Notes under the pieces: model-generated | What the model was told of the DNA's origin: nothing | What the model saw: only the letters and a program-made list of their open reading frames with translations | Database searches by the model: none | Shown here: positions 3,000 through 4,436 of the stretch, in pieces | Numbering within the stretch: position 1 is the stretch's first letter | Layout of the letters: each line of letters starts with the position of its first letter | From: a virus | Taxonomy: Duplodnaviria; Heunggongvirae; Uroviricota; Caudoviricetes | Strand: one strand, 5' to 3' | Length of the DNA stretch: 4,510 nucleotides | Virus record (IMG/VR): IMGVR_UViG_2724679238_000010 | Program-made: the position numbers and the translations under genes

Positions 3000-3376
3000 T
3001 GAGGCTGACGATGGAATTTAAAGATTTACCGTCTGATGTACAGAAAACAGCAGCTCATACATTGCATTCTGTGCTGCGAGAAATCGGGAAAGATATTGCA
3101 AGCGAGCCAGCAAAAGATCTGGCCCGGAAAATCAAGACCGCTTTCGTTGAGCTTTATAATGTTGGCACTGACTCTGAAACTGTCGAGACCAAGACCGTAA
3201 GTTCACCAATATTCTCACTTGAGCCAGGCGTATTATCAGGTGAAATATGCACCGAGATTTCCAGCGAACTGCTTCCGGTAATACGAGAAACAATTTGCCG
3301 TCGCGGTTTGGATGGAAGTTACGATCATGACGTCCTGCAAGTTCTCAGGACAATGGTGACTTCACTGGGGATTTGA
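2999..3376 (+). CDS. hypothetical prophage early protein (125 aa; alternative start 3011 gives 121 aa)
   Basis: ATG 2999 overlaps the TGA stop of the upstream gene by 1 nt (TGATG), suggesting translational coupling. ATG 3011 has its own GAGG SD (3001..3004) 6 nt upstream. No recognisable domain by eye. Confidence 0.55.
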   Translation: MRLTMEFKDLPSDVQKTAAHTLHSVLREIGKDIASEPAKDLARKIKTAFVELYNVGTDSETVETKTVSSPIFSLEPGVLSGEICTEISSELLPVIRETICRRGLDGSYDHDVLQVLRTMVTSLGI

Positions 3377-3545
3377 TCCCTGCGTCCTCTAACCTTTTGA
3401 TATAGCGGTCCTCCAAGAAGCGGTAAATTTTGTCGAAATCATCTTTCCCCTCTGATTTATTCAGAGGATTACAGGACCCGTAAGTAGCGGCATACATTTC
3501 AACCGTTTTATCAAAAATATAAGAGACAAATTCTTCTTTAGTCAT
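3345..3545 (-). CDS. hypothetical small protein, 66 aa, charged and soluble-looking
   Basis: ATG at 3543..3545 (rc) with AAGAAGGA SD (rc of 3553..3560) 7 nt upstream. Protein MTKEEFVSYIFDKTVEMYAATYGSCNPLNKSEGKDDFDKIYRFLEDRYIKRLEDAGIKSPVKSPLS. The track ORF extends to a GTG at 3630..3632, but that start lacks an SD. The 3' end overlaps the convergent gene 2999..3376 by 32 bp. Confidence 0.45.
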   Translation of the reverse strand: MTKEEFVSYIFDKTVEMYAATYGSCNPLNKSEGKDDFDKIYRFLEDRYIKRLEDAGIKSPVKSPLS

Positions 3546-3882
3546 ATAGATTTCCTTCTTGGTTATTCGGGATAAGAAGGATACCACCTCGCCTGACGTG
3601 GTTAAAAGCAGGCACACAACACGAAAGCGCACGGCGAAGTTCGTCTCACTGTACGGTGTCGTTAAATTTAATTCGACCGTGCGCTTCCGGTTGTGGCAAC
3701 CCGCGAAATGGCGCGGCGGTAAGTATGGCGGGGTTATTCCTTCCCCGTTGAGGACACCGGGTTGTCAGGTTGACCATACGCTTAAGTGACAACCCCGCTG
3801 CAACGCCCTATGTTATCAATTTTCTGGTGACGTTTGGCGGTATCAGTTTTACTCCGTGACTGCTCTGCCGCCCTTTTTAAAG

Positions 3883-4030
3883 TGAATTTTGTGATGCGGT
3901 GAATGCGGCTAAGCGCACGCGGAACAGTTAAAACCAAAAACAGTGTTATGGGTGGATTCTCTGTATCCGGCGTTAATTGTTAACTGGTTAACGTCACCTG
4001 GAGGCACCAGGCACCGCATCACAAAATTCA
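3883..4030. repeat. perfect 19-bp inverted repeat pair enclosing 110 bp with GTTAAC dyads
   Basis: 3883..3901 tgaattttgtgatgcggtg is the exact reverse complement of 4012..4030 caccgcatcacaaaattca. The enclosed region holds GTTAAC-TG-GTTAAC (3979..3992) within cgttaa...ttaacg (3971..3993). The right arm ends 5 nt before the SD of the 4048 gene. Confidence 0.7.
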
Positions 4031-4047
4031 TTGTTGAGGACGCGATA

Positions 4048-4236
4048 ATGGAAACGTTATTACCAAACGTTAATACGTCTGAAGGTTGTTTTGAAATTGG
4101 TGTCAGAATCAGTAACTCTGCATTTACTGAAGATGCCATTAACAAGAGAAAACACGAACGGGAGTTATTAAATAAAATATGCATTCTTTCAATGCTGGCA
4201 CGTTTACGCCCGATGCAAAAAGGATGCTGGCAATGA
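4048..4236 (+). CDS. hypothetical small protein, 62 aa
   Basis: ATG 4048 with GAGGA SD (4036..4040) 7 nt upstream. Protein METLLPNVNTSEGCFEIGVRISNSAFTEDAINKRKHERELLNKICILSMLARLRPMQKGCWQ. Its stop TGA (4234..4236) overlaps an in-frame ATG (4233..4235) of the next ORF. The track ORF starts at a GTG (3943) lying inside the inverted-repeat region, which I consider non-coding. Confidence 0.4.
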   Translation: METLLPNVNTSEGCFEIGVRISNSAFTEDAINKRKHERELLNKICILSMLARLRPMQKGCWQ

Positions 4237-4436
4237 ATACAGCAATTGCTCTCACTCTGATAGTTTTTCTTAATACGGGCGAGCCTGTTGACCCGGTTAT
4301 TGACATTTACGGTTCAATGAAAGAATGCACGGCTGCCGCAGCGGAACAGAAAACTCCCGGTAACTGTTATCCGGTCGATAAAGTTATTCATATGGACAAT
4401 AACGAAATCCCGGCAGGACTTAAAACAGCACCGTAA
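4179..4436 (+). CDS. hypothetical small protein with signal-peptide-like or membrane-anchor N-terminus (85 aa; alternative start 4233 gives 67 aa)
   Basis: ORF MHSFNAGTFTPDAKRMLAMNTAIALTLIVFLNTGEPVDPVIDIYGSMKECTAAAAEQKTPGNCYPVDKVIHMDNNEIPAGLKTAP. Basic residues (KR) precede a hydrophobic stretch (AIALTLIVFL), followed by a polar region with two Cys. Start is ambiguous: ATG 4179 has only a distant GGAG; ATG 4233 has AAAAAGG 9 nt upstream and forms an ATGA overlap with the preceding ORF. Confidence 0.45.
   Translation: MHSFNAGTFTPDAKRMLAMNTAIALTLIVFLNTGEPVDPVIDIYGSMKECTAAAAEQKTPGNCYPVDKVIHMDNNEIPAGLKTAP

Follow-up and report, generated by a model that had tools for sequence, protein, structure and literature searches.

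A covariation-supported RNA domain adjoining DicF in the untranslated centre of a lambdoid prophage early operon

The window analysed here, a stretch of 4,510 nucleotides, comes from a lambdoid prophage of the Qin/mEp460 type, of which it represents the immunity and early region, and it shows 99.3% identity by BLAST to Escherichia phage mEp460_ev081 across positions 3380-4050. Its genes and RNA features are collected in Table 1. The plus strand carries an operon in the order repressor, ydfA-like gene, 121-aa ORF, untranslated region, dicB and ydfD, and the stretch at 3600-3880 that an earlier note on this DNA had singled out is the untranslated centre of this early-left (pL-type, dicBF) operon. 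Some 1 kb of the operon, with two ORFs, precedes the untranslated region; dicB, the first gene on its 3' side, is reached only when transcription passes the DicF terminator. The proposal made in the earlier note, a small RNA or a long structured leader, was right in so far as the RNA is untranslated and holds a bona fide sRNA, but at such a distance into the operon it is not a usual 5' leader. Compared with the K-12 type, which carries ydfC, the untranslated region is here preceded by a different ORF and by an antisense small gene. The 66-aa protein of this antisense gene matched no NCBIfam family, and for that reason the name 'ECs_2282 zinc-binding', given to the gene at the equivalent position in a K-12-type genome, was not transferred to it. 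The gene ydfC itself is a separate 376-bp insertion of the K-12 type that is missing from the window, which rules out a ydfC reading frame overlapping the RNA domain called X below, and X is no mis-annotated ORF. No N-type antiterminator protein was found among the early-left ORFs examined. Published reviews treat everything between ydfC and dicB as plain untranslated region (PMC5069750; PMC9438474).

Table 1. Genes and RNA features of the window in order of position, with the basis of each assignment where one applies
Feature	Position	Strand	Basis or detail
P-like gene, start only		minus	
O-like replication gene with iterons	372-1349	minus	
CII/YdaT-like gene	1373-1798	minus	
YdaS/Cro-like gene	1782-2063	minus	
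DicA/C2-type repressor	2165-2584	plus	
ydfA-like DUF1391 gene	2847-2999	plus	
121-aa ORF	3011-3376	plus	
H1, helix of about 20 bp	3615..3695	plus	MFE; duplex energy about -30 kcal/mol
Module X, predicted closed RNA domain of about 115 nt	3690..3804	plus	covariation, 77 variants
P0 closing helix of X	3690-3697/3797-3804	plus	double-sided changes in 3/8 pairs
Pa hairpin of X	3701-3705/3712-3716	plus	double-sided changes in 0/5 pairs
Pb helix of X, encloses Pc	3717-3720/3756-3759	plus	double-sided changes in 1/4 pairs
Tentative pseudoknot of X	3723-3728 (GUAUGG) with Pd loop 3774-3779 (CCAUAC)	plus	double-sided changes in 1/6 pairs
Pc hairpin of X (second dyad of the earlier note)	3729-3733/3743-3747	plus	double-sided changes in 2/5 pairs
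Pd hairpin of X (third dyad of the earlier note)	3760-3767/3787-3794	plus	double-sided changes in 5/8 pairs
A/U-rich spacer between X and DicF	3805..3820	plus	sequence
DicF sRNA, 53 nt	3821-3873	plus	RF00039
DicF intrinsic terminator hairpin	3836-3872	plus	dG -23.3 kcal/mol, T5 at 3874-3878
STnc100-like domain, outside the finding, same transcript	3874..4047	plus	RF02076, 39.1 bits (gathering 47), E = 4e-6
dicB, cell-division inhibitor gene	4048-4236	plus	Pfam PF05358 DicB, 124 bits; annotation of near-identical records agrees
ydfD	4233-4436	plus	

What had been described from the letters alone as one GC-rich, hairpin-dense feature is a chain of separately folding RNA elements, at least three in number: the stem H1, the closed domain X and DicF. 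The observation behind that description is partly confirmed and its interpretation partly supported. GC content is indeed high, 0.61 over positions 3687-3808, and the interval as a whole outfolds its shuffled versions (z = -3.97, with 0/200 shuffles as good). The three dyads listed at the time all exist, and the positions given for cgggg (3729-3733) with ccccg (3743-3747) and for ccgtgcgc (3677-3684) were exact, while three of the six arms were off by one base and run as gcgcacgg 3627-3634, gggttgtca 3759-3767 and tgacaaccc 3787-3795. That no T-run follows the hairpins, so that none would be a canonical terminator, holds for those three and fails for the interval, in which a fourth hairpin, absent from the earlier note (ggcgg 3836-3840 with ccgcc 3868-3872), is followed by ttttt and forms the intrinsic terminator of DicF.

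Unrecognised at first, the final ~55 nt of the interval are the long-known DicF, an sRNA already described. The RF00039 match at 3822-3873 scores 76.7 bits (gathering 48; E = 2.5e-16) and spans the full model, 1-52, and the sequence is identical to the K-12-type copy over 53 nt. The DicF of the Qin prophage of E. coli K-12 stands in the same position upstream of dicB and ydfD and has the same terminator hairpin and U-run, but the known DicF accounts for only those last ~55 nt of the flagged interval. In K-12 this Hfq-dependent RNA represses translation of ftsZ as well as other mRNAs (PMC5069750), and its 5' end is an RNase E product, cut at the 3' edge of the spacer (PMC5069750; PMC9438474). 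A candidate promoter of its own for DicF (GTGACA-17-TATGTT, 3786-3814) was rejected, as it depends on a base unique to the window where other copies read CTCTGTT, and as the literature describes the 5' end as processed by RNase E. An Rfam scan, one of the checks suggested from the start, found DicF at the 3' end of the interval and a sub-threshold STnc100 match further downstream, and no family over H1 or X. These scans covered the whole window at E<=1 and positions 3560-3830 at E<=10, and no Rfam 15 family was found over the latter stretch even at that permissive threshold.

The core of H1 is the first of the three dyads. Its 5' arm at 3615-3634 (CACAACACGAAAGCGCACGG) is predicted to pair with the 3' arm at 3677-3695 (CCGTGCGCTTCCGGTTGTG) across a variable insert of ~42 nt, and the helix carries bulges. 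Folding of the duplex sequence by sequence found H1 in every lambdoid lineage, its inner part taking four different sequences (AAGCGCACGG:CCGUGCGCUU, GAGAGCA:UGCUCUC, UGAGGGCAUUU:AAGUGCUCUCA and AAGAGCAUUCC:GGAAUGCUCUU), and protein-anchored loci yielded a fifth (AGCUAAG:CUUAGC), whereas the base of the helix is constant, CAYAAC:GUUGUG. Covariation in H1 was assessed by this per-sequence duplex folding and column counts were dropped, the arms having been misaligned by two columns in MAFFT. Type-B inserts contain a T-arm-like hairpin, in which ARAGORN detected no tRNA or tmRNA and Rfam at gathering thresholds gave nothing relevant. P1 and P7 are without H1, and their P0 is weak. The motif GUUGUGG is shared by two mutually exclusive pairings, with CAYAAC upstream (the base of H1) or with CYRCAAC downstream (P0). 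The two states are predicted to lie 0.7-5.6 kcal/mol apart in four lineages, the preferred state varying among them, and over the full-length window the predicted MFE favours the H1 base over P0 by 4.5 kcal/mol.

Between H1 and DicF lies X. We compared 77 distinct copies of it from Escherichia, Shigella, Salmonella, Citrobacter, Trabulsiella, Erwinia, Izhakiella and P1/P7, and this comparison establishes X as a conserved, strand-specific predicted RNA domain whose fold is supported by covariation. Across the 77 variants 95.2% of the paired cells are complementary, against 31-56% when the 3' partners are slid, and both sides of the pair have changed in 12 of the 36 pairs, against 0-6 in the slid controls, with 0/500 shuffles reaching 12. 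Compensation is seen in Izhakiella, with GGGUAACCA/UGGUUACCC for GGGUUGUCA/UGACAACCC in the window, in P7, with CGGC/GCCG for CGGU/ACCG in the window, and in P1, with GCAUGG/CCAUGC for GUAUGG/CCAUAC. The stems are thus conserved and compensated in related sequences, the outcome that the earlier note had named as a check, and H1 adds to this by being kept with four different inner sequences. Because G.U pairs are frequent, the fold of X is specific to the plus strand. The isolated 122-nt segment yields the same helices in its MFE structure, but with z = -0.94 this core alone folds no better than shuffles, and hence the support for the fold is comparative rather than thermodynamic.

Several features of the data set bear on how these counts are to be read. 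A few lineages contribute most of the sequence diversity, and independent compensatory events are few. The search patterns required exact GGCGGYAAG and CAGGTTGACCAT, which makes the invariance of both in the 77-variant set partly a matter of ascertainment; among 13 copies recovered from protein-anchored loci, two carry one change each in GGCGGYAAG or CAGGTTGACCAT. The double-sided changes in P0 come in part from P1/P7, where the alignment of P0 is doubtful, and in the 67 lambdoid copies this helix is about 99% paired, with alternation of U.G with U-A and of G.U with G-C and one true exchange of C-G for U-A. The pseudoknot, for which there is one covarying pair from a single lineage in addition to U.G variants, is put forward as tentative. 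The same variants bear on the coding capacity of the stretch. The earlier note had seen no credible ORF here and had regarded the one listed (3559..3789) as doubtful, a judgement that stands. The window does contain an uninterrupted frame of 76 codons, and this ORF, or short ORFs overlapping it, might encode a small basic protein; it starts at TTG with no RBS, though, and the frame is shifted in 38 of the 77 variants and broken by premature stops in 44, a 1-bp indel is present in the K-12-type copy, and substitutions preserve base pairs and not codons. We give a protein product practically no credence.

X is widespread. It is present in 4313 of 5426 complete E. coli genomes, about four fifths, at 8966 places and in up to 8 copies per genome, and among the matches listed from these genomes no annotated feature lies under it. 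About 480-600 P1-type plasmids carry it as well. BLAST found it without DicF in phage cdtI, Stx2c phages, Salmonella phage F1055 and P1/P7, and this recurrence without DicF marks 3690-3804 as a separate module. Everywhere it is in sense orientation within an early transcript under repressor control: a few hundred nt separate it from the repressor gene upstream in cdtI, F1055 and pPE4, and in P1/P7 it begins about 25-30 nt after the start of the C1-controlled promoter Pban and is followed by a terminator. Judged from this layout of promoter, RNA and terminator, X would form an independent unit in P1/P7. The P1 record (NC_005856) has a misc_feature, 'dicF-like region', at 68791-68892, which is the same DNA, namely the 3' half of X with the following terminator; it was annotated for similarity alone, with no structure, boundaries or function given, and the likeness is to X and not to DicF.

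The position of X relative to its neighbours is strict. A terminator follows it by 11-34 nt in 67 of 68 distinct downstream contexts and by 57 nt in the 68th; in the window 31 nt, including the single-stranded 5' part of DicF, separate the end of X from the terminator stem. At least eight different terminator hairpins follow X, and UUU precedes the stem of each in every lineage. A U-rich stretch, a hairpin and a U-tail make up the usual 3' module of Hfq-type sRNAs. X occupies a slot between GUUGUGG and C(C/U)(A/G)CAAC, directly 5' of the U-rich stretch and terminator, and loci anchored on the neighbouring proteins revealed that the content of this slot changes. Only 11 of the 80 loci with the identical cdtI-type gene have X upstream of it, and only 2 of the 80 with kil. 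Among the remaining cdtI-type loci this slot, GTTGTGG...CCACAAC, holds an STnc100-like domain (58-59 of 80; in L151 it scores 43.4 bits with RF02076, below the gathering score of 47) or a third sequence of ~121 nt (5 of 80), the flanks and the UUU-GGCGG terminator being unchanged whatever the cargo. At 76 of 80 kil loci there is no slot, and a DicF-like terminator comes directly after H1. The CAYAAC, GUUGUGG and CYRCAAC arrangement is kept in all lambdoid lineages with any cargo. These swaps within one slot show P0 to be a true closing helix that surrounds an exchangeable cargo, and the loci that lack X show that the operon, the terminator and the downstream genes exist independently of it. 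As the slot can hold another cargo or none, X behaves as an exchangeable cassette, and read-through would not require it.

Structured small RNA domains carried by prophages are familiar as a general kind, and X adds a new family to them; the slot-and-cargo organisation appears to be previously undescribed. ARAGORN detected no tRNA or tmRNA in the window. A covariance model of X gave 148.9 bits on the window and 85-152 bits per copy, with one copy per locus. A likeness exists to the STnc100/PasD sRNAs (RF02076; bioRxiv 10.64898/2026.05.13.724894), which are also prophage structured domains of ~100-120 nt, closed by a helix and placed beside an intrinsic terminator, but which have no detectable similarity to X in sequence or structure: X had no match to RF02076 at E<=10, nor did the X model match the STnc100-like cargo. 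Those Pas and STnc100 copies that have been studied are located close to Q, in late regions (bioRxiv 10.64898/2026.05.13.724894), whereas X belongs to an early operon, and X was ruled out as a Pas sRNA (PasA-D) because the Pas RNAs are found in late regions near Q, holin, RusA and TerB. Those sRNA catalogues of EHEC and K-12 and reviews of DicF that were consulted describe no RNA adjoining DicF on its 5' side.

Taking these results together, we tentatively favour, at a little short of an even chance, the reading that X is a self-contained, exchangeable cassette that is released by processing and acts alone, rather than a controller of the adjacent terminator. According to this model X would be transcribed only once the prophage repressor is lifted and would then be cut out of the polycistronic RNA. 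Its 3' bound would be the RNase E cut that makes the 5' end of DicF, a cut established for the K-12 homolog (PMC5069750; PMC9438474), and its 5' bound would be, by analogy, a cut in the RNase III-like stem H1; cleavage of H1 by RNase III is thus putative. Once H1 was cut, GUUGUGG could pair anew with CUGCAAC and so close the domain through P0. The freed RNA of ~120-130 nt might then act alone, with a protein of the host or of the phage as its target or by serving as the 5' domain of an Hfq-type sRNA, with DicF working as known, that is, together with Hfq in repressing ftsZ and other mRNAs. The release of a discrete X RNA is something we infer with moderate to low confidence, and the strict adjacency of a terminator could still reflect a role of X in cis.

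A role in cis could take the form of a scaffold for the biogenesis of the downstream sRNA, in which case X would have no function of its own and would fix the RNase E site, keep the terminator/Hfq module from mispairing or protect the new 3' end of the upstream mRNA. It would fit this idea that X always stands 11-57 nt before the U-rich stretch, hairpin and U-tail and that the alternative cargos are of like size, 100-121 nt; upstream stem-loops are, moreover, said to direct RNase E processing of MicL in work by Updegrove et al. cited in PMC9438474, which we counted in its favour. The RNase E cut that gives DicF its 5' end also falls in the spacer that follows X (PMC5069750; PMC9438474). The 76 of 80 kil loci that have a DicF-like sRNA and terminator of the same type with no cargo at all show, however, that the cargo is dispensable, and a mere spacer would need no loops and junctions conserved from E. 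coli to Erwinia and P1. P1 has no upstream mRNA to protect, and a plasmid-borne dicF coding region still makes functional DicF according to a statement in PMC6582626, which cites Balasubramanian et al. 2016 for it. On balance we consider a scaffold unlikely. Decidedly less credible to us is that X works like the put RNAs of HK022, as a factor-independent antiterminator whose nascent RNA would remain on RNA polymerase and allow read-through of the DicF terminator, and later ones, to dicB; put acts in this way through the zinc-binding domain of the beta' subunit (PMC9378689). Both are phage cis RNAs of early operons, 3' of a repressor-controlled promoter and 5' of terminators, with no dedicated protein partner nearby, none of N type having been found among the early-left ORFs examined, and for X the place immediately 5' of an intrinsic terminator holds in every lineage, including P1, where the terminator stands between Pban and the tRNA and ban genes. 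Expression of dicB from a cryptic prophage also implies that read-through needs only host factors and cis elements (PMC5069750). The architectures differ, since put measures ~70 nt and comprises a V-shaped pair of stem-loops with a triplex (PMC9378689), while X is ~115 nt with five helices round a junction and a pseudoknot that we regard as tentative, and the X model run with filters off over the HK022 immunity region, putL and putR included, gave no better than 6.6 bits (E about 1), on which homology to put was rejected. HK022 has both putL and putR, whereas X occurs once per locus with no second, putR-like copy, and related operons do without it, the same terminator standing before the same genes with no X in 69 of 80 and 78 of 80 related loci. 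A processive antiterminator, furthermore, needs no terminator within 60 nt, yet one is there in 68 of 68 contexts.

The layout of X, with a closing helix, a junction of several helices, conserved unpaired bases and a possible pseudoknot some 11-57 nt before an intrinsic terminator, also resembles that of a transcriptional riboswitch, and covariation support for a structured domain is something X shares with that class. X together with the bistable pairing of the H1 base and P0 might in this case be a sensor of a ligand, a protein or temperature, binding of which would favour one of the pairings CAYAAC:GUUGUG and GUUGUGG:CYRCAAC over the other and in this way affect termination, processing or translation of dicB; the near equality of the two states in energy and the retention of the three motifs whatever the cargo would agree with it. 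Against a sensor, no alternative pairing of X or the spacer with the terminator arms is conserved in position or exceeds shuffled controls: over 16 lineages the best pairings with either arm were at the shuffled mean and at inconsistent positions, by which a riboswitch with an expression platform was rejected. Unlike an aptamer tied to its platform, moreover, the cargo is swapped for unrelated domains or is absent, there is no metabolic gene context, and P1/P7 manage with no H1 and a weak P0. For these reasons we find a sensor very improbable.

DicF was among the first bacterial sRNAs to become known, and dicBF still serves as a model operon. It is possible, if rather unlikely, that with X a class of phage 'cargo' RNAs not described before has its first member. 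In that case the Qin prophage of E. coli K-12, and P1 as well, would encode a functional structured RNA missed through decades of research on dicF. As it stands, the untranslated region of dicBF resolves into discrete RNA domains, supported by covariation, and X provides a concrete new family for the catalogues as well as an explanation of the old 'dicF-like region' label in P1. The natural cassette swaps, with X, the STnc100-like domain, the third cargo or none in the same place, are ready-made controls for the roles of these domains in prophage induction. Should X act in trans, a structured RNA that does not work by base pairing would be added to the tools of phages against their hosts; should it not, it would still be a clean case of the shuffling of RNA modules in phage mosaics.

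Downstream of DicF the same transcript continues into a further structured domain, which is related to STnc100, although within 3871-4080 it remains below the gathering score of that family. A helix of ~28 bp (about 3874-3901 with 4010-4040) is predicted to close it (MFE -67.7 kcal/mol, z = -6.19), and the 3' arm of this helix covers the Shine-Dalgarno sequence of dicB, GAGGA, at 4036-4040. The 3' end of a 72-nt form of DicF is made by RNase III (PMC5069750), and this end, at about 3892, maps to the 5' arm of the same helix, which points to the long closing helices on this transcript as processing sites.

The segment that separates the small RNA DicF from dicB forms an STnc100-like domain closed by a long helix, and the DicF U-tail is part of the 5' arm of this helix while the dicB Shine-Dalgarno sequence GAGGA (4036-4040) is covered by its 3' arm. 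The published RNase III cut (72-nt DicF) also maps into the 5' arm (PMC5069750). With the Shine-Dalgarno sequence of dicB held in one arm and the RNase III site in the other, cleavage by RNase III or the opening of the helix may be required for translation of dicB. At the other end of DicF the window reads CCCTATGTT at 3809-3814, where nearly all other copies read CCCTCTGTT, and the base unique to the window creates a promoter-like -10 whose predicted start is the DicF 5' end. Because it is not conserved, this resemblance in sequence is probably without meaning.

Coordinates of the features described in this part of the analysis
Feature	Position	Strand	Remarks
STnc100-like domain	window 3874-4047	+	between DicF and dicB; near-perfect closing helix, ~28 bp
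Third cargo, ~121 nt (TGAATGCGCAGGCTGATGCGCGAAAGACATTGCAGC...)	L180 ~2190-2330; also L187		in the GTTGTGG...CCACAAC slot
H1 insert, 86-123 nt	L008 ~2390-2480; equivalent positions in L026, L027		enclosed by the H1 stem
66-aa gene	window 3345-3545	-	antisense within the early-left operon; strong RBS AAGGAA
Promoter-like TTAACC-16-TATCCT	window ~3603-3576	-	by eye; upstream region (3546-3603) of the 66-aa gene

In the comparison loci L180 and L187 the slot occupied in the window by X, the closed RNA domain, holds a third exchangeable cargo, for which there was no Rfam match at E<=0.01 and no match to the X model. The insert that the long-range helix H1 encloses in lineages from Salmonella, Erwinia and Izhakiella carries a T-arm-like hairpin (GGTTCGATTCC / GGTTCAATTCC), and phages SPN1S, SPC32H and Edwardsiella EPP-1, as well as some Stx2a phages, have this insert on its own. 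The SPC32H copy is annotated as tRNA-Arg; ARAGORN and Rfam find no tRNA in the insert. In K-12-type prophages, ydfC is a 376-bp insertion (L004 2520-2970 versus window 3600-3612) with near-repeats of T(T/G)AAAAG(C/T)CAG(G/A)C..CA(C/T)AAC on either side, a sequence arrangement which suggests that short conserved sequences of the RNA scaffold double as recombination joints.

The terminator hairpin located just 3' of X in L008, L024, L026 and L027 has a loop of 40-50 nt in which a Shine-Dalgarno-like AGGAG occurs together with an ATG or GTG, and an ORF or leader peptide may start inside this terminator. The 'Actinobacillus phage' vB_Apl-pPE4, with an early region otherwise resembling that of E. 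coli, has neither H1 nor the 5' strand of P0, the closing helix of X, and presents at L007 ~2610-2790 a tandem duplication of CCCCGCCACAAC, spacer and DicF-like terminator.

The product of the 66-aa antisense gene matches phrog_34441 (function unknown), with no Pfam or NCBIfam match. Its promoter-like site overlaps the conserved hairpin CCACCUCGCCUGACGUGG, which is found again 5' of H1 in many lineages.

Elsewhere in the window, three direct repeats of TTTGACGGGTCAACCGTTGAGGGG in the O-like gene (905-1003) look like origin iterons, and the palindromic ACCTATGGGT-type sites flanking the repressor gene (2096-2140 and 2627-2663) are probably operators.
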